Source of the DNA: Acaryochloris marina S15
GTDB lineage: Bacteria > Cyanobacteriota > Cyanobacteriia > Thermosynechococcales > Thermosynechococcaceae
Assembly: GCF_018336915.1 (NCBI RefSeq)
Contig: NZ_CP064923.1
Coordinates: 4,440,001-4,472,000, forward strand
Reading direction: 5' to 3'
DNA length: 32,000 nt
Made by a program: the position numbers and the translations under genes. Under the pieces are notes generated by a model. It saw only the letters and a program-made list of their open reading frames with translations, searched no databases and was not told the origin of the DNA. This document shows, piece by piece, positions 6,571 to 30,511 of the stretch (position 1 is the stretch's first letter; every line of letters begins with the position of its first letter).

Positions 6571-8820
6571 TTGCCCATGACATCTCCTAAACCTTCGCCG
6601 TCAAAAACCCTGTTAGGGAATGTGACGCAGGTGGTTCGTACCATTCAAGCGAAAGCAGATCTGTCAAAGCTTACCCTGAAGCGTAATGCTCGGGTGCCAG
6701 AGTTAAAAATTAATTCCGGTGAAGGGGAACCCCAAAGCTACCCCCTGATTAGCGATCGCTATATTATTGGCCGCAGTGCCCGCACCTGTGACATTGTGAT
6801 TCGCAATCCCATCGTTAGCCAGGTGCATGCCTCAATCCAGCGGGATGGTAAGCGCCGCACCTTTTTGATTCGGGATGAGCAATCCACCAACGGCATCTTC
6901 CGCCGCAAACGTCGGGTGGACTCCCATGCGTTGCGCCACAAAGATGTCTTGACCCTGGGACCTGCGGCTCTCGAAGCTGCAGTAAGTGTCGAATATATTG
7001 ATCCGCCGCCCTGGTACGTGCGAGGGATGCGCTATCTGCTCTATGGCACCGCAGGAGTCGTGGGTTTAACCCTACTCGTAGTCGCTGCAGAATGGCAGAA
7101 GTTTACCGTTCGCCCATTACCCACCACCAACCAAGGCCCCATTGTCGTTCTATCCCGAGACCAAACCCCGTTAGCACGACGTCGGGACACGGTCCATGGT
7201 GAGCTAAAAAGTCTGGATGACTTTTCTCCCTATATTAGGGATGCCTTGTTGGCCTCAGAAGATAGTCGGTTCTACTGGCATATGGGCGTCGACCCCATTG
7301 GCATTGTTCGAGCAGTGATTACCAACATCTCCGGGGGCAGCGTCAGAGAAGGGGCAAGTACGATTACCCAACAGCTCTCTCGCAGCGTTTTTCGTAGCTA
7401 TGTGGGCAGTGAGGATACCCTAGATCGGAAGTTCCGAGAAGCCGTCGTTGCTCTGAAATTAGAGACCTACTACAGTAAAGACTTTTTGTTACTGACCTAT
7501 TTGAATAAGGTCTATTTAGGCATCTATGCCAATGGATTCGAAGATGCGGCTCGCTTTTACTTTGATAAACCCGCCAAAGACTTGAGCATTGCTGAATCCG
7601 CTACCCTTGTGGGCATTTTGCCTGCCCCCAATGCTTTTAACCCCGTTCAGGACTACAACGCGGCCCTGGAATTCCGTAATCGAGTCATTACTCGCATGGC
7701 TCAGCAAGGTCGGATTAGCCAAACAGAAGCCGATCGGGCACGCCGCTCCCGCATTGAGATTAGTCCCAATGCTCGGGAAGAGCTGCAAAGCGTTAAGGCT
7801 CCCTATTACTACAGCTATGTCTTTGATGAGTTAGAGGAATTGTTAGGGGCCAGTCTGGCCCAAGAAGGCAATTTTATTATCACCACTAATTTAGATCTGG
7901 CAGTGCAAAATACGGCCGAACAAACCCTATCCAATGCCATCGCCACCTCTGGATCAACCTTTGGCTATTCCCAAGGGGCCTTACTCACCGTGGATTATGA
8001 AGCGGGAGAAATTATTGCGTTGGTGGGGGGCGCAGACTATAGCAAAAGTCAGTTCAATCGAGTCACTCAAGCCCAGCGTCAACCGGGTTCGACCTTTAAG
8101 CTGTTTGGCTATACGGCAGCCGTGGATGCCAATATTTCCCCCAACAAAACCTATTCCTGTTCTCCGTTTGCATGGCAGGGGCAAACCTTTACCGGCTGCC
8201 AGAATGGGGGGAGCGGCAACATTGACATGTTTCGGGGATTTGCCCTGTCTGAAAATGTGGTGGCTTTACGGGTTGCCCAAGATGTCGGCATTCCCAGAGT
8301 GATTCAAACCGCTCGCCAACTGGGAATTTCTTCTCCCTTACAAGCTGTTCCAGCCCTGGTCTTGGGGCAAAGTGAAGTAACGCCCTTAGAGCTAACACGG
8401 GCTTTTGCCGTTGTGGCCAACCGTGGCCGACGCCATACGCCCCGCGCCATTCGGCAGGTGCTCGATGCCGGAGACTGCAAAGATTCCCGTTCTATTTCCA
8501 CCTGCCGGGTGATCTATGAGGCTACCCAAAATGCCAGTACCCAGGTCTTAGATCCAGGGGTTGCCGTCGTTATGCAAGACATGATGCGTCAAGTGGTGCA
8601 ATCGGGGACCGGCAGCGGTGCTGGGATTGCCTCGGGAGCTGCGGGTAAAACAGGCACCACTAACCTTGGCCGAGATTTATGGTTTGTGGGTTACGTGCCT
8701 CGCCGCAATTTATTGACGGGGATTTGGCTCGGCAATGATGACAATAGTCCCACTTCAGGGAGTAGTGCCCAAGCTGCTGCTGTCTGGGGAGATTACATGC
8801 GGCAAATCATCAATCAATGA
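6571..8820 (+). CDS. Class A penicillin-binding protein (GT51 transglycosylase + transpeptidase) with an N-terminal cytoplasmic FHA domain
   Basis: FHA-like YIIGRSARTCDIVIRNPIVSQVHASIQRDGKRRTFLIRDEQSTNGIF. TM helix YLLYGTAGVVGLTLLVVAAEW. GT51 motifs EDSRFYWHMGVD and GASTITQQL. Transpeptidase motifs STFK, SEN and KTGTT. Confidence 0.85.
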   Translation: MPMTSPKPSPSKTLLGNVTQVVRTIQAKADLSKLTLKRNARVPELKINSGEGEPQSYPLISDRYIIGRSARTCDIVIRNPIVSQVHASIQRDGKRRTFLIRDEQSTNGIFRRKRRVDSHALRHKDVLTLGPAALEAAVSVEYIDPPPWYVRGMRYLLYGTAGVVGLTLLVVAAEWQKFTVRPLPTTNQGPIVVLSRDQTPLARRRDTVHGELKSLDDFSPYIRDALLASEDSRFYWHMGVDPIGIVRAVITNISGGSVREGASTITQQLSRSVFRSYVGSEDTLDRKFREAVVALKLETYYSKDFLLLTYLNKVYLGIYANGFEDAARFYFDKPAKDLSIAESATLVGILPAPNAFNPVQDYNAALEFRNRVITRMAQQGRISQTEADRARRSRIEISPNAREELQSVKAPYYYSYVFDELEELLGASLAQEGNFIITTNLDLAVQNTAEQTLSNAIATSGSTFGYSQGALLTVDYEAGEIIALVGGADYSKSQFNRVTQAQRQPGSTFKLFGYTAAVDANISPNKTYSCSPFAWQGQTFTGCQNGGSGNIDMFRGFALSENVVALRVAQDVGIPRVIQTARQLGISSPLQAVPALVLGQSEVTPLELTRAFAVVANRGRRHTPRAIRQVLDAGDCKDSRSISTCRVIYEATQNASTQVLDPGVAVVMQDMMRQVVQSGTGSGAGIASGAAGKTGTTNLGRDLWFVGYVPRRNLLTGIWLGNDDNSPTSGSSAQAAAVWGDYMRQIINQ

Positions 8821-16281: not shown

Positions 16282-17091
16282 CTATACCTGGCTTGGATGC
16301 ACCGCATCACTTAAAGCAATCCACTGGGCTACACTCAGTTCCTCGGCACGAGCCTGGAGACTGATATTGAGGGTATTCAAGCAATCCGATAGCTGGTCTC
16401 GATCCACTAATGCCTTGAGGTTATTCCGTAGCATCTTCCGACGACTGCCAAATCCCACCTTCAATAAGGTTGAAAGCCATTGCGGGTTTTGGGCAGGTTG
16501 GGGATAGGGACGAGGGGTCAGCCGCACCACTGCCGACTCGACTTTAGGGGCGGGTTTAAAGGCAGAGGCGGGAACTGGACAAATCAATTCACAATGGGCG
16601 AGATATTGCGACCTAACCGATAATCCGTTAAAGGTCTTCGAACCCGGTTCGGCCACCAACCGATCCGCCACCTCTTTCTGGACGAGCAACACGACCGTTT
16701 CATAAATCGGTTGTGCTGGCTCATCAATACGTCCCAGGACCTTACTGAGAATCGGGCTCGTGATGTTGTAGGGAATATTGGCAACGATTTTATTGGGTTG
16801 CGCATCTGCTAGCTCTGCAGCAACATCTATGTTCAGAAAGTCCTGCTCTAATAACGTGAAATTGTCCTGGTCCTTGAAGGTATAGCGGAGAGATTTGCAT
16901 AAGTCCCGATCCAACTCAACCGAAACAACAGACTGGGCTTGAGCCAGAAGTTCTCGGGTTAAGACACCTCTGCCCGGTCCTATTTCAAGGATGCGATCGC
17001 ACTCCTGTATATTGGCTGCAACAATAATTTCACGGAGCACAGCTTGGCTTTTCAACCAATGCTGAGCAAAACGTTTACGGGGCCTAGGCAT
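16282..17091 (-). CDS. rsmA: 16S rRNA (adenine1518/1519-N6)-dimethyltransferase
   Basis: RKRFAQHWL, SAM-binding site ILEIGPGRGVLT, and NIPYNITSPIL. The rsmA-ispE adjacency is common. Confidence 0.9.
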   Translation of the reverse strand: MPRPRKRFAQHWLKSQAVLREIIVAANIQECDRILEIGPGRGVLTRELLAQAQSVVSVELDRDLCKSLRYTFKDQDNFTLLEQDFLNIDVAAELADAQPNKIVANIPYNITSPILSKVLGRIDEPAQPIYETVVLLVQKEVADRLVAEPGSKTFNGLSVRSQYLAHCELICPVPASAFKPAPKVESAVVRLTPRPYPQPAQNPQWLSTLLKVGFGSRRKMLRNNLKALVDRDQLSDCLNTLNISLQARAEELSVAQWIALSDAVHPSQV

Positions 17092-18307
17092 TGTAGAGTT
17101 ACCGAAACACCCTCATATTAGCCTGTGACTCAACCTTCACCCCATACATTCTTAATCTTTTCATAATAAACTCCTCAAATCACCCAGGCGTCTAGTAACA
17201 AACACTTAATTATTCCTGCAAAATGTATTTAAGAATACATTCTTGTGATTAGGATCACTTATCCAGATGATGTGGATCAGTAATGTACTTGCAGGTGATA
17301 GATTCTGTGTTTTTCCAACTCAACTTATTGATTCAATAGTTGAGTCATAAAGTTTGTCGTAGCATATGCCCTTAAAAGGGCAATAACACGACAACAGTTT
17401 AGTATTGGTCACTACACTCACTTTCAATAATGAACAAAAGAATATTATTCCCAAACCAGGGATACTGTAAGTTGTACAGCACAGTTTTTGTCGTCAGGAT
17501 TAACTAGCTTCACTAATAATCCTCAAACAATATCTTCTACGCTGCACAAACTGAATTCATAATTCCATAAAGAAGTGACTATAAAATCTTAGCCAGGAAG
17601 TTTTCTATGTTCGTGAATGAGTAGAGACATCTCTCTCTTTCTAAGAAAATGCCAAAAACTTTCCTCAATAGATTCAGAAAACTCATGTTCAAATTTTTGG
17701 AACGAGTTAAAGTCTATCCTTACTGAAGGCATCTTCAGTGATAAGTTCGCATATTGAAGATAGTCCTCTCTCCAAAAAAGTAGATTTAAGGTTCTAAAGC
17801 AGCTTCTTTTAATGCTAAATACCTGCATGCATAGACTCTAAACAGATGCAGCCGAGTCTTTGTCTACTATGAACCTGAGAGCTATCAAGCTTTTACAAGT
17901 CGCTTCTGACGAGTACATTCAAATATCAGTGCCATACTTAATTGATAAACTAGAGCTCAAAAAAATAGACACAAAGAAAATATTTAGAAGGAAAAGCATA
18001 GAATATTCAGATGTGTATCATCAATCCATATAATTTCTGTGGGATAAAACTATCTATCAGGCAAAAACTTTAGTGCAACTACTTTTCTCAATACAATGTG
18101 ATATCAAACAAGTGAACTAGCATATTAACAATACAATTCTTATTCTTGAGTCAAGCTCAGGAAGCCCAAGGTTTTATTTTACATTTTAGAACCTTGGGCT
18201 TTTATATATATCCCTCTAATCTCCACTCAATAAACTTTCACAAAAAAGCATCTATATACCATTATTAGGTAACTTGATTTATTTAATATTTTTTCAAAAA
18301 AAAAAGC

Positions 18308-18336
18308 TTGACTTAGAATAATCACTACGGTATTAA
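18308..18336 (+). promoter_or_regulatory. Candidate sigma70-type promoter for the peptide array
   Basis: TTGACT (18308-18313), exactly 17 nt of spacer, then TATTAA (18331-18336). It is preceded by an A/T tract (tttatttaatattttttcaaaaaaaaaa) and lies about 140 nt upstream of the first peptide ATG. Confidence 0.4.
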
Positions 18337-18479
18337 TGTAATAGACAATCAAAAGTATTCATCGGGAGCAAAATCGAATACTTCTGAAAAACCTAAACAA
18401 GCAAACTTAATTTTCAATTAAAAAATCAAGTTTGTTCCATATAAACGATTAAATACCTTAGTGCAAGTGAGGTCATATT

Positions 18480-18713
18480 ATGTCTGAATTATTTACTGAA
18501 TTGTCTGATCAGCAGCAAGAACTTGTTGCTGGTGGTTCAGTGACGCTACTCAACGTCAATGCCACAAATTTCTACTCCAATACTGAAATCCTTGGGGCTG
18601 CTGGGGCTGCTGGCTCTACTCCAGGTGGATCAGTGGCTGTTGGTGAAATTGCTGGTGCGAACCAAGAAATTTATACCAATGCTCTTGGTGTTCAATTTGG
18701 TAATGTTACTTAG
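18480..18713 (+). CDS. Double-glycine-leader secreted peptide precursor P1 (77 aa)
   Basis: Leader MSELFTELSDQQQELVAGG followed by a 58-aa Gly/Ala/Asn-rich core. GAGG lies 7 nt upstream of the ATG. Paralogous to P2-P5 and linked to the HlyD/C39-ABC genes. Confidence 0.85.
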   Translation: MSELFTELSDQQQELVAGGSVTLLNVNATNFYSNTEILGAAGAAGSTPGGSVAVGEIAGANQEIYTNALGVQFGNVT

Positions 18714-18986
18714 GAAAAGGCTAACGCTAACCTAATCATTACCAACATTCAGTTGTATTGAGAACAACCAAGAGCTGATCTTAATTGTGAACCTAGTACT
18801 CCACCACATAGAAGATGGTAGGTTCCCAAAAGCTAAGATTCATTTTTAATCAAGGGTTTTGCTTTCAGTAACTCTGCCACAATCCCTATGGCACAGTACC
18901 CGGATATTCACATTCATGTTGAGTCTGGCTTTTGGTTATTTCCAAGCTATATTCACGTTCATTTATTAGTGCAAGTGAGATCTATC

Positions 18987-19220
18987 ATGTCTGAATTATT
19001 TACTGAACTGTCTGATCAACAGCAAGAGATTGTCGCTGGTGGATCAGTCACACTACTCAACGTCAATGCCACAAATTTCTACTCCAATACTGAAATCCTT
19101 GGTGCTGCTGGGGCTGCTGGCTCCACACCAGGTGGATCAGTTGCTGTTGGCGAAATTGCTGGTGCGAACCAAGAAATTGACACTAAAGCGCTTAGTGTTC
19201 AATTCGGTAATGTTGCTTAG
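18987..19220 (+). CDS. Double-glycine-leader secreted peptide precursor P2 (77 aa)
   Basis: Internal ATG of track ORF 18888-19220. It aligns codon-for-codon with P1 and carries the same upstream tgcaagtgag motif. Confidence 0.85.
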   Translation: MSELFTELSDQQQEIVAGGSVTLLNVNATNFYSNTEILGAAGAAGSTPGGSVAVGEIAGANQEIDTKALSVQFGNVA

Positions 19221-19334
19221 GCATCGTTTTGCCCTAACAACATAATCCTATTTTGCAAGACTACTGAAAGTAGGTATAACCCATACAAACAAACTAGCGA
19301 ACATTATTTTTCTAGTTTGAATATAAGCTTCTCA

Positions 19335-20476
19335 TACCAATTTGCGTTTTAAATCGTAATTCTCATATGAGGAAAATTGGTCATAGAAGTCAGCCTATCG
19401 GGTAAATCCATGAGTTCTTTGAGTCCCTTGCACAAGGTATCGGATACCTCATCTAAAGAATCAAAAACCTGATTGTAGAAGTGCTTTTCTTTCACCTCCT
19501 CCCAGATATGCTCTACAGCATTGAGTTGTGGACTTCGAGGAGGCTGAACAATCAAGCGTATATTGTCTGGAATGACGAGCTTCTTTCCGGTGTGGTAAGA
19601 CGCTCCATCGACCTGCATCACCACAAAATAGTCTGAAAATTCATCCGCCACTTGTGCTAGGAATAAGTTCATCATCTGAGTATTGGAAAAGGGTAAGACT
19701 AAAGCACTCATCTTTCCTAACGCAGGAGCAACAGCAACATAGCCATAGAGATATTCACGGACAAGCTGCTGCCCACTTTCGGGTCGAATTCCAGGAGCAC
19801 ACCAAGCTCTTCTTACTTGCCCTAGACGACCAAAGCGCCCTTCGTCTGCTGCCATGATCACAATGGGACGTTGGTCTTCAGCTGAGCGATCTGCTACAGC
19901 GGTTTGGACCAGCCCCCGAAAGTTTTTTTAAAAGCCTCTCGTGCCGCTTTGTTTCCATTGGGATGGGACGGACGAGGCATGAGTTTGCGCCATCCGTGTC
20001 GGTCTAGCAAACGATAGATAGTACTGGGTGCCACTGACGTCTCCACTTTAGTCTCAAAGGCCGTTTGGATCTCTTGAACCGTTGTTAAATGACCTTGTTG
20101 AGCACGTTCAATAAACGATTCTAAAAATTCAATCTCTTCTTCGATACTCAGATAAGCACCGGGATTCTTCTTCCGTTTAGCCCTAGGAGCAATTGCTGCT
20201 GCTCCTAGGCGATTGTAAGCGGAAATCACCTGATGGACCGTTCGAAGACTAGTAGCAGTATGCGTGGCTATTTCGATAGCTGGGCGAGGATCTACCAGGG
20301 CGTTATAAATAATCATCCATTTTTGCTGACAGCGGGCAGTCGGAGCCGTAGCAATTTTGTCTTTCACCTCATCCACTGTTAGATGCGGTTTAACTGTACT
20401 AACTCGACTCATATACTTATGGAATGAACATAGGATTAGATCCTATCTAAATTACATCCCAAAACACAAATTGGTA
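19335..20476 (-). mobile_element. IS630-family insertion sequence, copy 1 (1142 bp), intergenic between P2 and P3
   Basis: Terminal inverted repeats TACCAATTTG(C/T)GTTTT. Flanked by the 3-bp direct repeat TCA (19332-19334 and 20477-20479). By eye it is base-for-base identical to copy 2. Confidence 0.9.
19349..20412 (-). CDS. IS630-family transposase, OrfA (HTH) + OrfB (DDE) joined by a probable -1 frameshift at an A7 run
   Basis: OrfA spans 19894-20412 and OrfB 19349-19861. OrfB has the IS630/Tc1 signature PPRSPQLNAVEHIWEEVK. On the minus strand the sequence TTT AAA AAA ACT (T7 at 19923-19929 on plus) is followed by an open -1 frame, NFRGLVQTAVADRSAEDQRPIVIMAADEGRFG, that runs into OrfB. The fusion would be about 356 aa. 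Confidence 0.85.
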
Positions 20477-20531
20477 TCAGTAGTACTTGCACCCTATTCC
20501 AAAATCTCTTAATTGCAAGTGAGGTCACATC

Positions 20532-20765
20532 ATGTCTGAATTATTTACTGAATTATCTGATCAACAGCAAGAAATCGTTGCTGGTGGTTCAATCACATTG
20601 ATCAACGCCAATCTAACTAGCTTCAACTCCAATACTGAAGTCCTTGGAGCTGCAGGTGGCGCTGCTTCTGGCCCTGGTGGATCTGCAGCGGTTGGTGAAA
20701 TTGCTGGTGCGAACCAAGAACTTCATACCACTGCCATTAACTTTCAGTTTGGCAACGTACTATAG
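20532..20765 (+). CDS. Double-glycine-leader secreted peptide precursor P3 (77 aa)
   Basis: MSELFTELSDQQQEIVAGG followed by SITLINANLTSFNSNTEVLGAAGGAASGPGGSAAVGEIAGANQELHTTAINFQFGNVL. Has the same upstream motif and GAGG spacing as P1. Confidence 0.85.
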   Translation: MSELFTELSDQQQEIVAGGSITLINANLTSFNSNTEVLGAAGGAASGPGGSAAVGEIAGANQELHTTAINFQFGNVL

Positions 20766-20922
20766 TCATCCATTTGACTGAGTTTTAGGTTTCAATACCA
20801 CACGAATAGGGCTGTATAAATTGCATGAATTCTTTGAGTGAACACCTTTTATCAAGTTCATTATGGAATCACAATTTTATCCAGCCCTATTCCAGTTTTT
20901 CCCAACGTTCAAATCACTCATT

Positions 20923-21168
20923 ATGCCTGGTAAATCTTCTGAGTTATTTATAGAGCTATCTGAAAACGAGCAGGAAATTGTTGCAGGTGGGACAACAACA
21001 TTGTTCAACCTAAATCAAACAGCCTTCTTCTCTCAGTTAAATCTCTATCAAGCGAGTGGCATAGCTACTGCTGGCCCCAACGGTGCTAGCGCATCTGGGT
21101 CAATCACTAGAACCAACCAAACCATAAACACTAGTGCGCTCAACTTTGCCTTCGGTCAAGTTGATTAA
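20923..21168 (+). CDS. Double-glycine-leader secreted peptide precursor P4 (81 aa, divergent)
   Basis: MPGKSSELFIELSENEQEIVAGG followed by a TTTLFNLNQTAFF...NFAFGQVD core. The internal ATG is chosen by homology. The longer ORF from 20863 would overlap an intergenic inverted repeat. Confidence 0.75.
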   Translation: MPGKSSELFIELSENEQEIVAGGTTTLFNLNQTAFFSQLNLYQASGIATAGPNGASASGSITRTNQTINTSALNFAFGQVD

Positions 21169-21248
21169 TACAAAAAATCGGGAAGGCAGGTATCTCAATC
21201 ATCCCAGTGCAAGTGAGGTTTTTGGATATACCCTGCTTTCCCTTTGTG

Positions 21249-21278
21249 GCTAGAACCTTGCAATCCAAGTGTTCTAGC
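21249..21278 (+). promoter_or_regulatory. Stem-loop between the peptide genes and the export genes (possible attenuator or processing site)
   Basis: gctagaaccttg-caatc-caag(t)gttctagc forms a 12-bp stem with one bulge and a 5-nt loop. There is no U-tract downstream. Confidence 0.3.
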
Positions 21279-21395
21279 TATTCAGAGAGCATATAGCTTC
21301 TCAAGGCTTAATTATAACAGGCATCAAAGATGAGCCAGCCTTTCTATACCAAACACCCTTTATCAATCTCCTTCATGAAAGATCAATAAGATTCC

Positions 21396-22691
21396 ATGAA
21401 TACCCTCCAACCTGATCAACTTCACTTTGTTCAGGAAGATGAATTTCTACCCTCCATTAGCCCATGGGTTTCCATGGGAGGAATGGTTTTGGTGCTGGTA
21501 TTCGGTGCCGCTGTCGCCATTTCTTCCACTCTCAAATTCAGCATTACCGTCAAAGCGCCTGCAGCTATCCGGCCCGCAGGTGGCCTGAGTGTTGTCCAAA
21601 GTGGGATGGACGGCACCATAACCCATATCAGCGTTGAGGAGAACCAGATCGTCAAAAAAGGCGATCTGTTTGCGCAGCTAGACGATTCAGGGTTGCAAAA
21701 CCGAAAAAGTCAACTGCAAGGAGATATCCAATCCATTACGCTTCAGAGATATCAGATCAATGCCCAACTCAGAGCTTTAGACAATCAAATTATTGCTGAA
21801 ACCCGGTTAGTCAGCCGTTCCATTGCAGCCGCAGAAGCCAACTTAACGTCCCACCGTCGTCGCTATCAAAACCTCAAAATCAGTACAGAAGCAGACTTAG
21901 AAGAAGCCCAAGCCGGATACCACCTCGCGTCCGAAGAGTATCTCCGATTTAAAGAACTAGAAGAATCAGGGGCTATTGCTAAGCTACAGGTCAAAGAGAA
22001 GGAAGCCTCTTTAAAAGCGGCATCCGCCAGGATTAAGCGTCTTAAAGCCGCAACCAATCCCACAGACGCCACCATTGATCAAGCCCTAGAACAAATTGCT
22101 CAGGAACGAGCCAGAGGCGGTGTTACCCTAGCGGGCCTCAATCAGCAAAAAGAACAGCTGATGCGCACCCGCATCGAAGCTCAGAAACAGCTCCAACACA
22201 CTCAAAAAGAGCTGCAGCAGATCGATCATGAACTCAAAGGCACCCAAATTCGGGCGCCCATCGATGGCACCGTTTTACAGCTGAATCTGCGAAATCCCGG
22301 ACAAGTCGTGCAGCCCGGAATCCCAATCGCCCAAATCGCCCCTCGCAATGCTCCTCTGATTATCAAGGCGAAGGTCGGCGCCCAAGATATCAACCAAGTG
22401 AAAACAGGACAGACGGTCCAAATGAGAGTGTCAGCCTGCCCATACACCGATTACGGCACCTTAAAAGGAACCGTTACAAATGTGTCGCCCGATGCCATTC
22501 CGATGAGTGATGCTGGCACCAGTCCCGCCTTTTATGAGGTCACCGTTCAACCTCGCACCTTATATATGGGCACTCAACAGCGCTGGTGCCGCCTGCAATT
22601 TGGGATGGAGGGTCGAGCAGATATTGTGTCACGCCAAGAAACCGTTCTCCAATTTGTGTTGAAAAAAGCCCGCTTGATGTCCAACTTTTAA
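21396..22691 (+). CDS. HlyD-family membrane fusion / secretion adaptor protein
   Basis: N-terminal TM helix (VSMGGMVLVLVFGAAVAISS), a long coiled-coil middle region, IRAPIDGTVLQLNL and a C-terminal beta domain. Located immediately upstream of the C39 ABC exporter. Confidence 0.85.
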   Translation: MNTLQPDQLHFVQEDEFLPSISPWVSMGGMVLVLVFGAAVAISSTLKFSITVKAPAAIRPAGGLSVVQSGMDGTITHISVEENQIVKKGDLFAQLDDSGLQNRKSQLQGDIQSITLQRYQINAQLRALDNQIIAETRLVSRSIAAAEANLTSHRRRYQNLKISTEADLEEAQAGYHLASEEYLRFKELEESGAIAKLQVKEKEASLKAASARIKRLKAATNPTDATIDQALEQIAQERARGGVTLAGLNQQKEQLMRTRIEAQKQLQHTQKELQQIDHELKGTQIRAPIDGTVLQLNLRNPGQVVQPGIPIAQIAPRNAPLIIKAKVGAQDINQVKTGQTVQMRVSACPYTDYGTLKGTVTNVSPDAIPMSDAGTSPAFYEVTVQPRTLYMGTQQRWCRLQFGMEGRADIVSRQETVLQFVLKKARLMSNF

Positions 22692-22736
22692 TCTTTCTCA
22701 TCTGCTCATATCGCTTGATCAAATGATAAAAGCACT

Positions 22737-22958
22737 TTGTCCATGCCCTCTTTAATGCTCCTCAACCCGCTACTCAAATCACGAAAAAGCTACCAGTGCG
22801 TCAAGCAATGGAGCGAAGAAGACTGTGGAGCTGCCTGTCTAGCCTCAATCTGCAAGTATTATGGCCGTCTACTTAGCATTACCCGTAGTCGGGAAGTCGT
22901 GGGAACCGGACAACTTGGCACCACCCTCTTAGGTCTGAAACGAGGAGCTGAAGCATTA
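22737..22958 (+). pseudogene. 5' fragment (74 codons) of the C39-peptidase ABC exporter, cut by IS copy 2
   Basis: QWSEEDCGAACLASICKYYGRLLSITRSREVVGTGQLGTTLLGLKRGAEAL contains the C39 catalytic Cys region. The ORF leaves homology exactly at the IS boundary. Possible starts are TTG 22737 and ATG 22743. Confidence 0.85.
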
Positions 22959-24100
22959 TACCAATTTGCGTTTTAAATCGTAATTCTCATATGAGGAAAA
23001 TTGGTCATAGAAGTCAGCCTATCGGGTAAATCCATGAGTTCTTTGAGTCCCTTGCACAAGGTATCGGATACCTCATCTAAAGAATCAAAAACCTGATTGT
23101 AGAAGTGCTTTTCTTTCACCTCCTCCCAGATATGCTCTACAGCATTGAGTTGTGGACTTCGAGGAGGCTGAACAATCAAGCGTATATTGTCTGGAATGAC
23201 GAGCTTCTTTCCGGTGTGGTAAGACGCTCCATCGACCTGCATCACCACAAAATAGTCTGAAAATTCATCCGCCACTTGTGCTAGGAATAAGTTCATCATC
23301 TGAGTATTGGAAAAGGGTAAGACTAAAGCACTCATCTTTCCTAACGCAGGAGCAACAGCAACATAGCCATAGAGATATTCACGGACAAGCTGCTGCCCAC
23401 TTTCGGGTCGAATTCCAGGAGCACACCAAGCTCTTCTTACTTGCCCTAGACGACCAAAGCGCCCTTCGTCTGCTGCCATGATCACAATGGGACGTTGGTC
23501 TTCAGCTGAGCGATCTGCTACAGCGGTTTGGACCAGCCCCCGAAAGTTTTTTTAAAAGCCTCTCGTGCCGCTTTGTTTCCATTGGGATGGGACGGACGAG
23601 GCATGAGTTTGCGCCATCCGTGTCGGTCTAGCAAACGATAGATAGTACTGGGTGCCACTGACGTCTCCACTTTAGTCTCAAAGGCCGTTTGGATCTCTTG
23701 AACCGTTGTTAAATGACCTTGTTGAGCACGTTCAATAAACGATTCTAAAAATTCAATCTCTTCTTCGATACTCAGATAAGCACCGGGATTCTTCTTCCGT
23801 TTAGCCCTAGGAGCAATTGCTGCTGCTCCTAGGCGATTGTAAGCGGAAATCACCTGATGGACCGTTCGAAGACTAGTAGCAGTATGCGTGGCTATTTCGA
23901 TAGCTGGGCGAGGATCTACCAGGGCGTTATAAATAATCATCCATTTTTGCTGACAGCGGGCAGTCGGAGCCGTAGCAATTTTGTCTTTCACCTCATCCAC
24001 TGTTAGATGCGGTTTAACTGTACTAACTCGACTCATATACTTATGGAATGAACATAGGATTAGATCCTATCTAAATTACATCCCAAAACACAAATTGGTA
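22959..24100 (-). mobile_element. IS630-family insertion sequence, copy 2 (1142 bp), inserted in the exporter's C39 domain
   Basis: Same sequence as copy 1. Flanked by the 3-bp direct repeat TTA (22956-22958 and 24101-24103). Confidence 0.9.
22973..24036 (-). CDS. IS630-family transposase OrfA+OrfB (copy 2; A7 frameshift site, T7 on plus at 23547-23553)
   Basis: OrfA spans 23518-24036 and OrfB 22973-23485. Both proteins are identical to those of copy 1. Confidence 0.85.
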
Positions 24101-26077
24101 TTAGGATTCAATGCCCGTTCCGTGAAAGCATCGGAAGCTTTGATTGATCGGTTACAGGAAATCCTATTGCCAGCCATCATCCACTGGAAAGGCTATCACT
24201 GGGTCATTCTTTATGGGAAGCGCGGTCGCAAGTATGTTGTAGCCGATCCAGGCGTTGGGATTCGGTATCTCACCAAACAGGAGCTGCTCGAATCCTGGAA
24301 TGGCATCATGCTTTTACTAGAGCCTGATGTCGATCGATTTCATGATCGAGGCGAAGATGAGGCGAAGTCCGGTGGATTTTCTCGCTTCCTTGGGCGTATT
24401 TGGCCCTATCGCAATATTCTCAGCCAAGCCCTCCTGATCAATATTGTGCTGGGCTTGTTGGCCTTATCCAGTCCGTTTCTGATCCAGATTCTGACCGATG
24501 ATGTCTTGGTCCGTCAGGATATGGAGTTGCTGACGGTTGTGGTAGTGGGAGTTGTCATTTCCCAAGTGTTCAGCAGTAGCCTGCAAATCATGCAGTCAAA
24601 CCTAATTGCTCACTTCAGCCAGCGGCTGCAGTTAGGTTTGGTTTTGGAATTTGGTCGCAAAATCTTGCAGCTACCGCTGAATTACTATGAGTCGCGCAGA
24701 AGCGGGGAGATTATCAGCCGTTTGCGAGATATCAACGAAGTCAATCAACTGATATCGCAAATCGTTGTTCGGGTCCCCAGTCAAGTTTTTGTTGCCTTTA
24801 TTTCCATTGGCTTCATGCTGTTTTACAGCGCGAGTTTAACCCTAGTCGCTGCCGCTATTGCCGTCATCATGGCAATAGCGACTTTACCGTTTCTGCCGAT
24901 ATTGCGGAAGAAAACCCGCAATTTACTGATTCTGTCCTCAGAAAATCAAGGGGTCTTAGTTGAGACCTTCAAGGGTGCACTAGTCCTGAAAACAACCAAC
25001 GCAGCTCCCCAATTTTGGGAAGAGTTCCAATCCCGCTTTGGCCGACTCACCAATCTCACCTTCAGCACGATTCAACTGAGTATCCTCAACGGTACCTTTA
25101 CTCAGTTGATTTCAAGTATTGGTAGTGTCGCCCTTTTAGCCACGGGGAGTCTACTGGTGATCAAGGAAGAACTCAGTATTGGTCAGTTATTAGCCTTCAA
25201 CACCATGCAAGGCAACATGCTGGCCTTAATGACGACAATCATCGGCCTCACGGATGAATATTTTCGGGCTCAAACGGCGATTGGCCGTATTTTAGAGGTC
25301 ATCGATGCCACGCCAGAATCCGTAGGAGAAGCAAACAAACCGTTTGCCCAGCTGTCTGGAGACCATGATATTACCTGCTCCCATTTAAATTTTCACCATG
25401 CCGGGCGAGTCGTTCTCCTGGATGATTTTTCCTTGAAACTACCTGGGGGGAAAGTGACCGTCATTATTGGCAAATCCGGCTGTGGTAAAAGCACCCTGGC
25501 CAAGGTAATCGCCGGTCTCTACCAAACTCAGTCTGGAACCGTCAGAATGGGTCCCTATAATTTACAGGATTTATCCATTGAGTCTCTCCGACAGCAAGTC
25601 TCATTTGTCCCCCAAGAACCTCATTTTTGGAGTCGATCCATTATTGAGAACTTCCATCTGGGTAATCCACAGGTTTCCTTTGAGCAAATCGTTAAGGCCT
25701 GCCAAATTGCGGATGCCGATAGCTTTATCAGCGAATTACCCAATACTTACCAAACGGTTTTAGGTGAGTTTGGTGCCAACTTATCGGGTGGACAGCGGCA
25801 GCGGCTAGCCATTGCCCGAGCCATTGTTAACGATCCACCCATCTTGATTTTGGATGAATCCACGGCAGGCCTCGATCCGGTAAGCGAAGCCGAAGTACTG
25901 GATAAGTTATTAGCCTATCGCCAAGGCAAAACCACCATCATGATTTCCCACCGCCCCAGCACTATCAAACGGGCAGAATGGTTGATTCAAATGGAAAAAG
26001 GTCAACTGCTTTTGGAAGGAGACTTGGCCACCTTGGCATCTCAACCTGGAGAACATCAAAAGTTTTTAAACCACTAA
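24101..26077 (+). pseudogene. 3' fragment of the C39-peptidase ABC exporter (rest of C39 domain, six-TM domain, ATPase)
   Basis: (L)GFNARSVKASEAL..IIHWKGYHWVILYG..VADPGVG carries the C39 His and Asp regions. ABC motifs are Walker A GKSGCGKST, signature LSGGQRQR and Walker B ILILDESTAG. The track ORF start at 23981 lies inside the IS. Confidence 0.85.
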
Positions 26078-26102
26078 TAAACCATCATGAGGAAGAAAGA
26101 TC

Positions 26103-26411
26103 ATGTCTCCGTTACAAAACACTCCGCCAACAGCAGATCCACCGTCTGACTTATTTATTGAATTATCCGACCCAGAGCAGGAGACGATTTCAGCTGGATT
26201 TGGGTTGACCTATCTCTTTTTTGAGCAAGAAATCATTTCGTCGTCTTCGTCCAATACGACGGAAATCGACAATTTATCTCTTAGTTCCGGCAGCGGTCGA
26301 ACGTCTCAGCAAGCCAACTACGATGCCAAGCGCACCACCTTTGCCTTCGGGGGGTTAATTCCCATTAGCTCCGTGTCTTCGTTTATTGCATCCATTCTCA
26401 AATTGTTTTAG
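26103..26411 (+). CDS. Divergent fifth member of the leader-peptide family (P5, 102 aa) with a C-terminal hydrophobic extension
   Basis: ..DLFIELSDPEQETISAG parallels P4's ELFIELSENEQEIVAGG. The core keeps the family's FAFG motif at similar spacing. AGGAAG lies upstream of the ATG, which is 25 nt after the exporter stop. Confidence 0.6.
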   Translation: MSPLQNTPPTADPPSDLFIELSDPEQETISAGFGLTYLFFEQEIISSSSSNTTEIDNLSLSSGSGRTSQQANYDAKRTTFAFGGLIPISSVSSFIASILKLF

Positions 26412-26493
26412 CTGGGGCGCTGCTGGAGCTGCATAGCTGCGTAAATTGGCCATTGCGGTTGCATGATTACTTCTTTATAAGATTGAGTTCAAC

Positions 26494-27831
26494 ATGACTA
26501 AGACGCTGGTGACAAATACTGTTTTAAGGCAGGATAGTGGAGAGAGTGACGTTTCATCTCATAAGGTGATCCGATTGGATCGCCCCCTGAGTCCTTGGAT
26601 CACAGGTGAAGCGTCTATATCCTTAGGACCCACCATGTTGCAGTCTCTTGGACAACTTGTTTACACCAGTTTTCCTAACGTCGGTTTTAGGCACTTATCG
26701 AGTCCCCAAATCCCGCAAGAGATTCAACATGCGTTTGTCCATCAAGTGGTCTACTTACGCTGGAACTCTTATAATCCACCGGCTGCTGACTACCGGGCCG
26801 CCTACCTTTATCAGATCAATCCAAACAACACTTTATTTGGGTGGTTATATGGCGATGCAACGGATGATGTCGGTCGCCATGTTCCCTATTTTATTGGCTA
26901 TCACCTCGCAGAACCGTTGACGGATGATTATCTAAACAGTATTTATATTTGTCTGCAGAGAGGGCCAACGGCAATTTCTGATAAGGAAGAGCTCAGTCAA
27001 GGGGTTATAGAAAATATCTCTATTCCAGATATTCGCGGTTATCCCCCTGCCAGAATTGGCGTCGATATCCCCGATGATATTCGCAACTACAGCCGCACGT
27101 TTTTGCAGATGCAAGAGTTGCTTAATATCTTTGTACCCGCAAGCGAACGCCAGTCCAGACTAGCCCCCCCAACTCCTATACCTGAAGTAGATCTAGCCCA
27201 ATCCCTCTCCAAGCAAAACACCATTATTCAACCGAGGAAGAATCAGCCAGGGACGACGGTTCAACCCCGCCAGCCTCAACCAGCCCAACCTCAATCAGCC
27301 CAGCCTCAACCGGCCCAGCCTCAACCGGCCCCAATGAACTATCTTGAGCAAATTCTCTATGAATTAATTGCCAAGCCCATTGGGATTCAAAGCGCGTTTT
27401 TAGTGACCATAGACGGGCAGCCCATCACTTCTCCCATTGGTATTAGCGAAAACAGCGCCTTGATTATTGCGGGCACCATGCTGTATCTCGCCAGAAGTAC
27501 TCACGAAGAATTGCAGTGGCAAGGCATTGAGAAAATTTCGGTCCAGGCCCAGGAAGGATACGTCATTTTAGCGAACTGTACATCGGAGATCTTTCTGCTC
27601 GTCAAAGCGGCTAAGGCTTTAACAGGTCTACTGGATGGCGAGATCAACCGCACCATCAAGCGTCTACAAACTGCACTCCAAATTGAACATTTGGATAAAG
27701 ATACTGAGTTATCCCCAGAGGCCAGACAAGAGCTAGTATCCCAACTCAATTTGGATCAGCCCGCCTCGGCCCCGTCAGCAGAATCTGCCCTCAAACCTGA
27801 CATGCAGTATCGAGGCAACTCTATCCAATAG
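26494..27831 (+). CDS. Protein with an unknown N-terminal domain, a Pro/Gln repeat linker and a C-terminal Roadblock/LC7 (MglB-like) domain
   Basis: C-terminal LEQILYELIAKPIGIQSAFLVTIDGQPITSPIGISENSALIIAGTMLYLARSTHEEL..EKISVQAQEGYVILANCTSEIFLLVKA fits the Roadblock/LC7 alpha-beta pattern. The start codon is uncertain (26494 or 26635). Confidence 0.6.
   Translation: MTKTLVTNTVLRQDSGESDVSSHKVIRLDRPLSPWITGEASISLGPTMLQSLGQLVYTSFPNVGFRHLSSPQIPQEIQHAFVHQVVYLRWNSYNPPAADYRAAYLYQINPNNTLFGWLYGDATDDVGRHVPYFIGYHLAEPLTDDYLNSIYICLQRGPTAISDKEELSQGVIENISIPDIRGYPPARIGVDIPDDIRNYSRTFLQMQELLNIFVPASERQSRLAPPTPIPEVDLAQSLSKQNTIIQPRKNQPGTTVQPRQPQPAQPQSAQPQPAQPQPAPMNYLEQILYELIAKPIGIQSAFLVTIDGQPITSPIGISENSALIIAGTMLYLARSTHEELQWQGIEKISVQAQEGYVILANCTSEIFLLVKAAKALTGLLDGEINRTIKRLQTALQIEHLDKDTELSPEARQELVSQLNLDQPASAPSAESALKPDMQYRGNSIQ
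27271..27330 (+). repeat. 15-bp tandem repeat x4 encoding (QPQ[PS]A)n
   Basis: Units are cagcctcaaccagcc, caacctcaatcagcc, cagcctcaaccggcc and cagcctcaaccggcc. The last two are identical. Confidence 0.9.
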
Positions 27832-27979
27832 AGACCCGCTCCTCATTGTTATAGGCCACTCTCTTATTCTTTCATCCCATCAACGTCGGATAGTAGTCTC
27901 TTGAGGCTTCTGTTGACGTTCCATTGAATTCAACTTTCTATTTCCCCATTCAATCTCTAGTCGTTAAATATTTAAGAAA

Positions 27980-29344
27980 ATGAGCTTATTATTTGGAGAT
28001 ACTCCTAAAGCCATTAATTTACTGAGTATTGGTGAACGTGGCGTCGGTAAAACTGTTTTTTTAGTCGGTAGCTACACCGAGTCAAATCATAGCCATGACG
28101 GAGATCGACAAACAAAACTATGGTTTGACTGTGAAGAGCACGGTGCTCACGAAAATATCCAAGGGGTATTAAACTATATTGCTCAAACGGGCCATTATCC
28201 ACCCCCCACCATGAAGATCTCTGACTTCACCTTTAGCTTGAAACAGCAAAGGTTTTGGGGCACCCAAACCCTCTGTAACTTCCGTTGGTGGGATATGCCA
28301 GGAGAAATCTGTGATCTGAACAACCGTCAGTTTCAATCGATGGTGTTGAGTTCCCAGGGCTGCTGCGTCTTTATTAATGCCTATGCGCTGATTCACGAAC
28401 CGGCCTATCTGGATTCGGTCAAAGACATTCTCGAATTGGTAACTGCGATCGCATCTTTGATCAAGCATCACAACTTGCAGTATCCCATGGGGTTAATTTT
28501 CACCCAATGCGATCGCTTAGAAGCAGGCCCCTTAGGCCAATTACAAATTGAGAAATGTCTAGAACCCCTGATTATTCGCCTAGAGAATGCCCGCACCAAC
28601 TATCGACGGTTTTACTCCTCTATCCCGATTGTGCGCATAGATGGCACGCCCGTTCTGCGGGCCAGTGGCTCTGCCGATGGCCTAGTTTGGGTCACCTCTG
28701 AACTATGCAAAGCCCGTTCAGTCCAATCGGGGCAAGATTTGGCCACGAGTTTATCTCAAAGCACCTCCCTCGATCAGGGTGTATCCACCCCACGACGCCC
28801 CGGCTTTACCCTGGGACTTATTTCGGCTGGCGTTATCGGCTTCTTAACCGTGGGATTTGCCCTGACGTCACTCTGGTCAACCCAACCACCGCAACAGGCT
28901 CAAGCCACCCAAAGAACGGTCCAAGATCACCAAAACGTCTTGACCCGAGATCCGAATAATTTAGATTCCCTGATTTCTGTCTACGACCATTATGTAGAAG
29001 TGGGTCAACTGGCAAAAGCGGTGCCGTTGTTAGAGAGAATTGTGGCTCAAAAGCCCACCCATCTCGATCTGAAATTTAACTTGGCAGACCTCTACGAATT
29101 AACCGGAGACAAGCAAAAAGCCGAAGCAACTTATGATGCAATTCTGACAGCACAGCCCCAGGACGTAAAAGCCATCGTTGGCAAAGGGATTCTTAGGGGC
29201 GAAGCGGGAGATTTACAAACCGCTCAATCATTATTTCAGCAGGCTGAGAACATCGCTGTTACTCAAGAAGCCAAAGGCAAAATTAAAGAGATTGCAGCCC
29301 AAACGCTCCAAACGAAAGCCCCCACGAACACAATAAAACCTTGA
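27980..29344 (+). CDS. Membrane-anchored Ras-like P-loop GTPase with a C-terminal TPR-like domain
   Basis: G1 GERGVGKT, G3 WWDMPGE (DxxG) and G4-like TQCD. One TM helix (FTLGLISAGVIGFLTVGFALTSLW), then helical repeats (..LISVYDHYVEVGQLAKAVPLLERIVAQKP..ADLYELTGDKQKAEATYDAILTAQP..). Confidence 0.6.
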   Translation: MSLLFGDTPKAINLLSIGERGVGKTVFLVGSYTESNHSHDGDRQTKLWFDCEEHGAHENIQGVLNYIAQTGHYPPPTMKISDFTFSLKQQRFWGTQTLCNFRWWDMPGEICDLNNRQFQSMVLSSQGCCVFINAYALIHEPAYLDSVKDILELVTAIASLIKHHNLQYPMGLIFTQCDRLEAGPLGQLQIEKCLEPLIIRLENARTNYRRFYSSIPIVRIDGTPVLRASGSADGLVWVTSELCKARSVQSGQDLATSLSQSTSLDQGVSTPRRPGFTLGLISAGVIGFLTVGFALTSLWSTQPPQQAQATQRTVQDHQNVLTRDPNNLDSLISVYDHYVEVGQLAKAVPLLERIVAQKPTHLDLKFNLADLYELTGDKQKAEATYDAILTAQPQDVKAIVGKGILRGEAGDLQTAQSLFQQAENIAVTQEAKGKIKEIAAQTLQTKAPTNTIKP

Positions 29345-29680: not shown

Positions 29681-30025
29681 ATGTCCTGGAGAAAAATTGT
29701 TGAGATCCTATCCGGTGGACTCGCAGGATATTTGTTAGGAAAATATGCCAGTCTAGCCTTATACACCACAGCCATTGGCCCGATCAAGCTCGGCAATACA
29801 GGCCTCTTTCCGCTGCTCATCTCTACAGTACTAGGATTAATCTTTTGTCTCATTCCCTTACTACTAGGGAATGGCTTACTGCTGTCGTTCTTACCTAAAA
29901 TTGGGCTCTGGTCAACGGGGATTTCGGTGGTGATGAGTTTATATACGTTAGCCCTGGTTGCCATTGCCATCACCTTTGGAGTATTTGGCAATAATTCGCC
30001 GCTTCCTCTCCCCTTTTGGTTTTAA
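29681..30025 (+). CDS. Small polytopic membrane protein (hypothetical)
   Basis: 114 aa with 3-4 hydrophobic helices. Preferred over the overlapping minus-strand ORF 29587-29991, whose sequence is not protein-like. Confidence 0.4.
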   Translation: MSWRKIVEILSGGLAGYLLGKYASLALYTTAIGPIKLGNTGLFPLLISTVLGLIFCLIPLLLGNGLLLSFLPKIGLWSTGISVVMSLYTLALVAIAITFGVFGNNSPLPLPFWF

Positions 30026-30133: not shown

Positions 30134-30511
30134 ATGGAAGACTCTCGCGACGTTTTAGAAAATAGAACATTAAAGCGTCTTTTTCTGTTCATTTATTTGG
30201 TCCCTGTCTTTGGCGTTGTCCCAGCCCTCTGGACCCTCAGTCGACGAGATAGCGATCGCAAGCAGCGAGAAGTCAGTCGAGTGGCCACCCTGATCGGCTT
30301 AGCATGGCTAATAGGAACCCTATGTCTCACTTCTGGTGTTGCCATCACTAGCGGAGAGAACGCCCAGAGTATGGGAATTTCGCAGTTATTGTTCAATAGT
30401 TTATTTACATCCGGCTATTTTCTCAGCAACTTGTGGCTGATGGTCCGGGTTTGGCGACGTCAGTCCCTCGACATTCCAGGGCTGAAACGCATCACTAAGT
30501 ATTTGCCCTAA
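30134..30511 (+). CDS. Small membrane protein (hypothetical)
   Basis: 125 aa with three predicted TM helices. Its stop lies 3 nt before the next gene's ATG. Confidence 0.45.
   Translation: MEDSRDVLENRTLKRLFLFIYLVPVFGVVPALWTLSRRDSDRKQREVSRVATLIGLAWLIGTLCLTSGVAITSGENAQSMGISQLLFNSLFTSGYFLSNLWLMVRVWRRQSLDIPGLKRITKYLP

Follow-up and report, generated by a model that had tools for sequence, protein, structure and literature searches.

Few bacterial GTPase switches have been studied, among them MglA/MglB and the conservons, and none of these has a tie to peptide secretion or spans the membrane once with a repeat domain that faces outwards. Class II bacteriocin and competence loci combine a double-glycine (GG)-leader pheromone and a C39-peptidase ATP-binding cassette (C39-ABC) exporter with a histidine kinase and a response regulator, as in ComC/ComAB/ComDE and BlpC/BlpAB/BlpHR. 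GG-peptide systems underlie biofilm formation (EbfG/PteB; PMC4997328) and heterocyst development (HetC; PMC4133259, PMC10986499). DO-GTPases are TRAFAC GTPases with a Walker-B glutamate, and DO-GTPase/GAP1 systems have been described as 'nearly completely absent in cyanobacteria' (Kaur, Burroughs, Iyer & Aravind 2020, PMC7159879). Here we describe two neighbouring open reading frames (ORFs) of Acaryochloris marina S15, ORF1 with a Roadblock/LC7 domain and ORF2 with a membrane-anchored GTPase and a TPR domain, which follow a GG-peptide export cassette in a stretch of 32,000 nt (NZ_CP064923.1, 4,440,001-4,472,000), called the window below and used as the coordinate system for all positions. ORF1 and ORF2 belong to an apparently undescribed, cyanobacteria-restricted GTPase module, probably a novel type of switch linked to the secretion or sensing of peptides. 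The family spans Gloeobacterales to Nostocales, often with several copies per genome, and its members have no annotation beyond 'TPR repeat protein' or 'hypothetical'.

ORF2, a membrane-anchored GTPase

ORF2 encodes a probably active TRAFAC GTPase of a DO-GTPase2-like family, anchored by one transmembrane (TM) helix and followed by a C-terminal TPR domain (Table 1). End-to-end alignment of 35 homologues with 40-97% identity revealed the invariant motifs G18xRGVGKT25, D105xPGE109 and T175xxD178 (T(Q/K)xD), a complete G1/G3/G4 set, and the AlphaFold2 (AF2) model, with a predicted local distance difference test score (pLDDT) of 74, placed seven TPR-like helices (pLDDT 75-95) behind an alpha/beta G domain, with the hydrophobic residues 276-298 between them left unmodelled. 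Foldseek analysis of this model led to the EF-Tu G domain (E 2.7e-5) and to TPR proteins. A P-loop GTPase fold with G1, G3 and G4 was thus found in ORF2, and the motifs GERGVGKT, DMPG and TQCD, the single TM helix and the TPR domain, all of which the initial annotation had read from the letters, could be confirmed.

The designation of ORF2 as Ras-like in that annotation was not supported, as profiles for Ras, Arf, Roc and MglA gave no match to ORF2 or to four relatives (Pfam, E ≤ 10) and the family matches DO-GTPase2 instead. A profile of the G domain searched against PDB sequences reached only Rab32, at the P-loop level (E 0.07), which was not taken as evidence for Ras membership. When ORF1 and ORF2 were scanned directly with Pfam and NCBIfam, no GTPase family was assigned to ORF2, DO-GTPase2 included, and only TPR and a sub-threshold Roadblock were returned. 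Among the 35 full-length homologues, 18 were matched by Pfam DO-GTPase2 (PF19993; best E 6e-8), and the GTPases of loci L016 and L085, which are 42-51% identical to ORF2, scored 28.4 and 32.4 bits at a cut-off of 27. The Walker B glutamate characteristic of DO-GTPases is present in D105-x-P107-G108-E109 of all 35 homologues, where it occupies the position of Ras Gln61. Homologues of ORF2 with 40-50% identity were detected across the cyanobacteria, including Gloeobacterales. Two arginines precede the helix and the G domain requires cytoplasmic GTP, which predicts an N-in/C-out topology that would place the TPR domain outside the cytoplasm, either in the periplasm or in the thylakoid lumen.

ORF1, a partner with a novel N-domain and a Roadblock domain

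ORF1 is a soluble protein composed of a novel N-domain and a Roadblock domain. The AF2 model showed pLDDT values of >90 in the N-domain and ~90 in the Roadblock part, and the element order a-b-b-a-b-b-b-a of residues 283-403 is that of the Roadblock fold. When this part was compared with the PDB by Foldseek, Asgard and Streptomyces Roadblock proteins, LAMTOR2/3 and MglB were detected with E values of 7e-8 to 5e-5 and TM-scores of 0.63-0.83. Pfam Robl_LC7 remained sub-threshold for ORF1 of the window alone (E 0.0035, 17.5 bits, cut-off 23) and matched 31 of 49 ORF1 family members (best E 1.5e-9). The C-terminal Roadblock/LC7 domain had already been recognized in the initial annotation, and both the structural comparison (TM-score ~0.8) and the profile matches among the relatives agree with it; the conserved N-domain at residues 48-222, which is not filler, had gone unnoticed.

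For the N-domain, the AF2 model predicted the element order b-b-a-b-b-b-a-a, which is the longin order. No Pfam match was obtained for seven N-domains at E ≤ 10 and no PDB sequence match in a profile search, while hhalign gave a probability of 0.2%, that is no relation, between the N-domain and the Roadblock domain of the same family. Longin structures were absent among the 50 Foldseek matches listed for the whole ORF1 model, all of which were Roadblock structures. Searching 1.84 billion representative proteins with an N-domain profile led to 327 members at E ≤ 0.001, in which the domain was always N-terminal.

The reading frame at 26494-27831, as initially annotated, exists, but translation probably starts not at 26494 but at M48 (26635), giving 398 amino acids (aa), as most homologues start there and the ratio of non-synonymous to synonymous substitutions (dN/dS) of codons 1-47 relative to A. 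marina MBIC11017 is 0.54. This value goes along with a synonymous divergence (dS) of only 0.09, compared with ~0.5 in the rest of the gene, and with dN/dS of 0.03-0.04 in the downstream domains. The DNA of 26494-26634 is conserved among Acaryochloris strains, absent from other cyanobacterial homologues and without an Rfam match; this pattern is more that of a conserved 5' leader or a regulatory region than that of translated sequence.

Conservation of the pair in cyanobacteria

A scan of one genome per species led to 127 GTPase loci, of which 80 were kept for analysis, all of them cyanobacterial. Gloeobacterales were again represented, and several genomes harboured more than one paralogous GTPase pair. 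Using tblastn and ORF analysis, a gene with the N-domain was found to adjoin the GTPase gene in ~55 of the 80 loci. The constant family-wide partner of the GTPase is the N-domain, with Roadblock, WD40, PstS, caspase and TPR as interchangeable additions. GTPases of ~320 aa that end behind the TM helix (G-TM) are accompanied immediately downstream by N-domain-TM-WD40 proteins. The ~450-aa form with TPR (G-TM-TPR) is combined with N-domain-Roadblock in Acaryochloris, Xenococcaceae (L061) and Crocosphaera (L073/74/79), with N-domain-TM-PstS in L042, L044, L053, L055 and L057, and with N-domain-caspase-TM-WD40 in the second A. marina pair (L058). Soluble G domains of 260-277 aa, 42-45% identical to that of ORF2, have N-domain-Roadblock immediately downstream (L081, L085). 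In a hydrophobicity scan, 75 of the 80 GTPases had one TM helix (residues ~265-370); most of the remaining five come from truncated contigs. The architectures of GTPase and partner complement each other, as every TM-anchored pair includes at least one partner with a predicted extracytoplasmic repeat or binding domain, which the soluble pairs lack.

In six Acaryochloris genomes the order of ORF1 and ORF2 is the same at dS values of up to >2, and purifying selection (dN/dS 0.03-0.11) acts on every domain as well as on P5, the peptide encoded between the exporter and the pair. The proposal that the two genes form a GTPase switch is consistent with such a conserved, selected pair; a role of Roadblock as the family-wide partner is not supported, the N-domain being the constant element.

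Some further observations were made at these loci. In MBIC11017, L058 (9974-14516) encodes a G-TM-TPR protein of 460 aa and then a 1044-aa protein with N-domain, C14-like caspase, TM and WD40 parts, no exporter being nearby; the same caspase architecture is present in four other Acaryochloris genomes. The partner proteins of L042, L044, L053, L055 and L057 bear the public annotation 'PstS family phosphate ABC transporter substrate-binding protein', a name that probably misleads, since their PstS-type phosphate- or solute-binding domain is fused through a TM helix to the N-domain. An ammonium-transporter-like gene recurs beside G-TM-TPR genes in ~10 loci lacking an N-domain gene over 10 kb, among them L017-L019, L032 and L034 (Snowella), where it lies ~0.1-1.7 kb upstream of the GTPase gene. 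Such a neighbourhood probably reflects lineage synteny.

Association with GG-peptide export

A C39-ABC gene, 59-97% identical to that of the window, adjoins the GTPase gene in 19 of the 80 loci and on the truncated contig L052, and a long-type C39-ABC gene does so in L061. Outside the 80 loci, the same exporter layout was detected in L086 (Leptolyngbya sp. NIES-3755) and L089. The observed exporter adjacency of 25% (20 of the 80 loci), from loci that are not phylogenetically independent, compares with ~1% expected by chance, as estimated from ~3.4 bacteriocin clusters per cyanobacterial genome (PMC3140520). When all ORFs of the 80 loci were clustered, ABC, HlyD and GG peptides were the only functionally coherent recurrent neighbours.

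Adjacency to C39-ABC/HlyD genes, which the initial annotation had suggested following across cyanobacteria, recurs in at least five arrangements. Six Acaryochloris genomes show the order HlyD-ABC-P5-[N-domain-Roadblock]-[G-TM-TPR]. In the order termed type-B, HlyD-ABC-P5-[G-TM]-[N-domain-TM-WD40], the GTPase precedes its partner (Nostoc, Scytonema, Desmonostoc, Dendronalium, Myxacorys and Leptolyngbya). L009 has a divergent layout, the exporter genes are downstream in Chroococcidiopsis (L012/L014), and L061 combines a long-type ABC gene, HlyD and a HetP-like gene with [N-domain-Roadblock]-[G-TM-TPR]. In L029, L052 and L086, only 6 nt lie between P5 and the GTPase gene, whose stop codon overlaps the start codon of the partner. 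A rough neighbour-joining tree of the G domains placed nearly all exporter-linked members, together with Acaryochloris, in one large clade and L061 apart from it, which suggests that the exporter association is old, with later losses.

Small proteins between the exporter genes and the pair in L061 (8501-8860, plus strand) and L009 (8233-8601, minus strand) share the motif EAILAGKYSWACVLILRF(A/T)GYNPLxYIPYRTYNRL and presumably resemble HetP-family proteins. They hint at a connection to HetC/HetP-type developmental export.

Peptides in the position of P5 were detected in nine type-B loci (L015, L016, L024, L026, L028, L029, L036, L052 and L062) and share the core FFQQTAIDxF...SRTGYSFRQTTFAF, in its fuller form (F/L)FFQQTAIDxFxE...SRTGYSFRQTT(F/L)AF...F. 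With a profile of these cores, P5 of the window was the top match of 582 window ORFs (E 0.015), and the order of the motifs was kept in the alignment. Among 5.8 billion proteins, the P5 family accounts for 27 clusters, none with an annotation other than hypothetical. In four further contexts (L086-L089), P5 always followed CTB peptide(s), HlyD and C39-ABC. Judged by gene order, P5 is a component of the exporter cassette, to which the pair is often but not obligatorily added, as P5 cassettes occur without the pair in L087 and L088. The P5-type peptides of these two loci are encoded at 7001-7297 (L087) and 4009-4290 (L088), and L087 has a TauE-family gene in place of the pair.

Gene content of the window

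On the plus strand between 18.4 and 29.3 kb, four CTB-family GG-leader peptide genes are followed by HlyD, C39-ABC, P5, ORF1 and ORF2 (Table 1), with 25 nt between ABC and P5, 82 nt between P5 and ORF1 and 148 nt between ORF1 and ORF2; strand, limits of both ORFs and gaps are exactly those initially annotated. GG-leader peptides, HlyD and C39-ABC together represent a cyanobacterial GG-peptide export cassette. ORF1 and ORF2 are ~91% identical to their MBIC11017 counterparts, and ORF1 is 100% identical to a Logan contig protein.

Table 1. Features of the export cassette and of the GTPase pair, in window coordinates (residues refer to the ORFs as drawn).
Feature	Position	Strand	Description
CTB-family GG-leader peptide gene	18480-18713	+	
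CTB-family GG-leader peptide gene	18984-19220	+	
CTB-family GG-leader peptide gene	20532-20765	+	
CTB-family GG-leader peptide gene	20923-21168	+	
HlyD-family membrane-fusion protein	21396-22691	+	Pfam HlyD_3 E 6e-24; co-conserved with ABC gene in related loci
C39-peptidase ABC exporter gene	22737-26077	+	insertion sequence element inside at 22958-24101
P5, GG/AG-leader peptide	26103-26411	+	between C39-ABC gene and pair; dN/dS 0.10
ORF1	26494-27831	+	445 aa as drawn; N-domain, PQ-rich linker, Roadblock
ORF1 N-domain	26635-27159	+	residues 48-222, ~175 aa; dN/dS 0.03
ORF1 Roadblock/LC7 domain	27340-27702	+	residues 283-403; dN/dS 0.04
ORF2	27980-29344	+	454 aa; GTPase, one TM helix, then TPR
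ORF2 G domain	27980-28729	+	residues 1-250
G1 motif GERGVGKT	28031-28054		
DMPGE motif	28292-28306		DxxG plus Glu
TQCD motif	28502-28513		NKxD-type
ORF2 TM helix	28805-28873	+	residues ~276-298; Arg-Arg on N-terminal side, read from sequence
ORF2 TPR domain	28892-29308	+	residues ~305-443; Pfam TPR_19 E 3e-11

The exporter, as initially annotated upstream of P5, is present, but its gene is split by an insertion sequence (IS) element that had been overlooked. This 1144-bp element occurs in two 100% identical copies, one among the GG-peptide genes (19334-20477) and one inside the ABC gene (22958-24101). Both copies encode a transposase in two ORFs of the minus strand and have terminal inverted repeats that begin with ATACCAATTTG. 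The split is located within the C39 domain, so that Pfam Peptidase_C39 matches both ABC fragments, with ABC_membrane and ABC_tran on the second fragment; in-silico excision restores the reading frame of MBIC11017, in which the ABC gene is intact.

The CTB peptide genes were assigned to the NCBIfam CTB family bacteriocin with E 1e-14. Three GG-peptide genes (18476-18731, 18983-19238 and 20528-20783) form the direct-repeat family D1, the later copies showing 88% and 74% identity to the first, which indicates that CTB precursor genes were recently duplicated in tandem. Just upstream of the first GG-peptide gene, the GC content falls sharply to 31-36% (17000-18500), and several promoter-like hexamer pairs are found at 17.5-18.3 kb within this stretch, which may be the promoter region of the cassette or a scar of its acquisition. 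No Rfam match was obtained for 17-31 kb, and promoter and terminator scans did not exceed the shuffled expectation; the sole plus-strand terminator-like site between 26.1 and 29.3 kb falls inside the TM-coding part of ORF2. Downstream of ORF2, two small predicted membrane proteins are encoded on the same strand at 29681-30025 (114 aa) and 30134-30511 (125 aa). They were found at the same position in four and five, respectively, of the other six Acaryochloris genomes, not near the GTPase outside Acaryochloris, and had no Pfam family match.

Possible function and alternative explanations

Our preferred interpretation, which we hold tentatively and at a little under even chances, is that ORF1 and ORF2 form a membrane GTPase module that is functionally attached to GG-peptide export and couples peptide status to a GTP switch. 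The GTPase domain and ORF1 would be located on the cytoplasmic face of the membrane, where the N-domain with Roadblock could serve as a platform for setting or reading the nucleotide state, be it as GTPase-activating protein (GAP), guanine nucleotide exchange factor or effector. Roadblock and longin platforms act in that manner for MglA, Rag and SR-beta (SR, signal recognition particle receptor). The TPR domain would be outside the membrane, and in the sister architectures the WD40 propeller or PstS-type domain of the partner would take its place. This outside domain might bind either the export apparatus or a ligand that is exported, for which the P5-type peptide encoded alongside is the most plausible candidate, so that extracellular peptide status would be passed on to the cytoplasmic GTP switch and from there to regulation of export or to a cell response. 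Peptide-pheromone/histidine-kinase circuits of Gram-positive bacteriocin loci have an analogous role; no such kinase is present here. The repeated placement behind HlyD, C39-ABC and a dedicated peptide makes the pair a candidate for the regulator, sensor or immunity function that GG-peptide systems of cyanobacteria are missing. A doubtful, more specific version is a receptor-coupled GTPase, in which TPR, WD40 or a periplasmic binding protein domain on GTPase or partner senses the secreted P5-type peptide and a longin-like plus Roadblock platform controls the nucleotide state. If true, it would be a G-protein-based alternative to bacterial two-component quorum sensing, built from the platform folds by which Rag, Rab and SR GTPases are regulated in eukaryotes.

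Several observations weigh against functional coupling of the pair to export. About 60 of the 80 GTPase loci have no adjoining exporter, so that the role of the module is more general than export, and of the four further P5 contexts the pair is present in L086 and L089 and absent in L087 and L088. The similarity of the window P5 to the type-B peptides is weak at E 0.015, no DNA-binding or enzymatic effector was found in the locus, and the N-domain is only tentatively longin-like, by the order of its secondary-structure elements. In this strain, finally, the export system may be inactive or silenced, because the IS element splits the ABC gene.

It is possible, though rather unlikely, that the pair is a secretion or assembly accessory, in which periplasmic TPR or WD40 domains scaffold or chaperone P5 and CTB peptides or bridge to an outer-membrane component, while GTPase and partner gate assembly or localisation. 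Its fixed position after ABC and P5, the translational coupling in L029, L052 and L086, and low-score TPR matches to the secretion and assembly proteins BcsC, PilW, PgaA and SycD would suit such a role, as would the report of CTB/EbfG-type GG peptides as matrix components in Synechococcus biofilms (PMC4997328). P5 cassettes without the pair and the many GTPase loci without a nearby exporter are difficult to reconcile with it, and PstS-type and caspase fusions suit sensing or signalling better than scaffolding. A further, improbable explanation is an immunity or conflict module that has arisen as a DO-GTPase offshoot, detects envelope damage or incoming bacteriocin-like peptides and triggers protection or suicide, with self-protection of the producer. 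A caspase domain on some partners, DO-GTPase2 matches with the Walker-B glutamate, a partner gene downstream of the GTPase gene as for GAP1, and several paralogous pairs per genome would fit, and bacteriocin loci usually include immunity genes, none of which is evident here. Pfam analysis of N-domains and partner proteins did not find GAP1, GASH or FNIII, however, PADLOC had no match for ORF1 or ORF2, and an effector domain is lacking in most architectures. The family is moreover ancient and mostly vertical, Gloeobacterales included, and under strong purifying selection with no sign of diversification, and DO-GTPase systems are nearly absent from cyanobacteria according to Kaur et al.

The initial annotation had cautioned that the adjacency might be fortuitous, an independent MglA/MglB-like polarity or motility switch abutting a horizontally acquired GG-peptide island with its border at ~27.9 kb. 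By our count HIP1 (GCGATCGC) occurs nine times in the window, with 28445 and 28509 inside ORF2, as noted before, and with none at 17001-28444; the low GC at 17-19 kb, IS activity within the island and the absence of exporters at most family loci also point in this direction. Such a border would however separate ORF1, on the HIP1-free side, from ORF2, its conserved partner, although the order is the same in six Acaryochloris genomes that differ by dS values of as much as >2. Exporter adjacency also recurs in distant cyanobacteria (Nostocales, Leptolyngbya, Chroococcidiopsis, Myxacorys and Xenococcaceae), Ras/MglA profiles do not match, and at the density of the window an 11.4-kb stretch without HIP1 is only mildly unusual (estimated Poisson probability ~0.04). 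We therefore rejected a HIP1-defined border as the cause of an accidental adjacency, which is contradicted by the cross-genome synteny, and regard fortuitous adjacency as very improbable.

Comparison with known systems

A full-text literature search led to no paper on the pair, on its link to GG-peptide exporters or on a P5-type peptide in such clusters, in line with the initial statement that no MglA/MglB-type switch tied to double-glycine secretion had been described. The survey of bacteriocin clusters in PMC3140520 mentions neither GTPase nor Roadblock, TPR or tetratricopeptide. With its CTB peptides, HlyD and short-type C39-ABC, the cassette of the window is a typical member of the cyanobacterial GG-peptide clusters (groups I-VII, PMC3140520), and in L061 the pair stands beside an exporter of the long, HetC-like type together with a HetP-like gene, resembling HetC/HetP (PMC4133259, PMC10986499). 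Like three-component bacteriocin loci, the locus has a distinct GG-leader peptide beside an exporter and a membrane protein pair with a predicted extracytoplasmic domain, but GTPase and N-domain/Roadblock partner stand where histidine kinase and response regulator would be. By this analogy, P5 and the pair plausibly represent an autoinducer-and-sensor layout.

The ORF2 GTPase appears related to the DO-GTPases by sequence, without their GAP1/GASH/FNIII partners. DO-GTPase/GAP1 systems (PF19993/PF19975) resemble the pair in the glutamate of DxPGE, the DO-GTPase2 threshold being passed by family members, in a partner that is usually encoded immediately downstream, in frequent membrane association and in variable accessory domains including caspase. 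GAP1-N/M/C, GASH and FNIII were absent from seven N-domains (Pfam, E ≤ 10) and from the matches of 49 or 65 partner proteins. The pair differs further in having no zinc ribbons, a TM helix C-terminal to the G domain, accessory domains that are mostly binding modules (TPR, WD40, PstS and Roadblock) and a place in GG-peptide operons, and its GTPase family appears confined to cyanobacteria, from which DO-GTPase systems are nearly absent.

Eukaryotic longin/Roadblock platforms (SRX-SRbeta, Ragulator-Rag, Mon1-Ccz1 and DENN) are comparable in that ORF1 has one Roadblock domain and a second alpha/beta domain with the predicted element order of a longin domain, beside a membrane-anchored GTPase; the Roadblock domain of ORF1 matches LAMTOR2/3 of Ragulator, and in SR-beta, too, a longin domain binds a GTPase that is anchored by a TM helix (Levine et al. 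2013, PMC3747258). The pair has no sequence relation to these platforms, a different GTPase family and a bacterial context, so that an evolutionary connection is speculative. If the N-domain is longin-like, the pair would also be relevant to the history of such platforms in prokaryotes.

The analogy drawn in the initial annotation to MglA/MglB of Myxococcus and Thermus and to the Streptomyces conservons stands in so far as a Roadblock protein is encoded beside a GTPase and the C-terminal domain of ORF1 superposes with MglB and Streptomyces Roadblock proteins; it fails for the GTPase family and the constant partner. A shared logic, in which a Roadblock platform regulates a nucleotide switch, is likely. 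Membership in either system was rejected, as their defining features are missing: MglA is a small, single-domain Ras-superfamily GTPase of ~200 aa, whereas ORF2 has 454 aa with TM and TPR parts, and the Roadblock domain of ORF1, unlike MglB, is fused behind a novel 175-aa domain. Nor is the four-gene unit of conservons (CvnA kinase, CvnB Roadblock, DUF742 CvnC and MglA-like CvnD) present, since no kinase or DUF742 gene was found around the pair in the window or among the recurrent neighbours in the 80 loci. The linkage is to a peptide exporter and not to motility genes. The pair is therefore new in partner domain, membrane architecture and genomic association, while a switch of the GTPase/Roadblock type is otherwise known.

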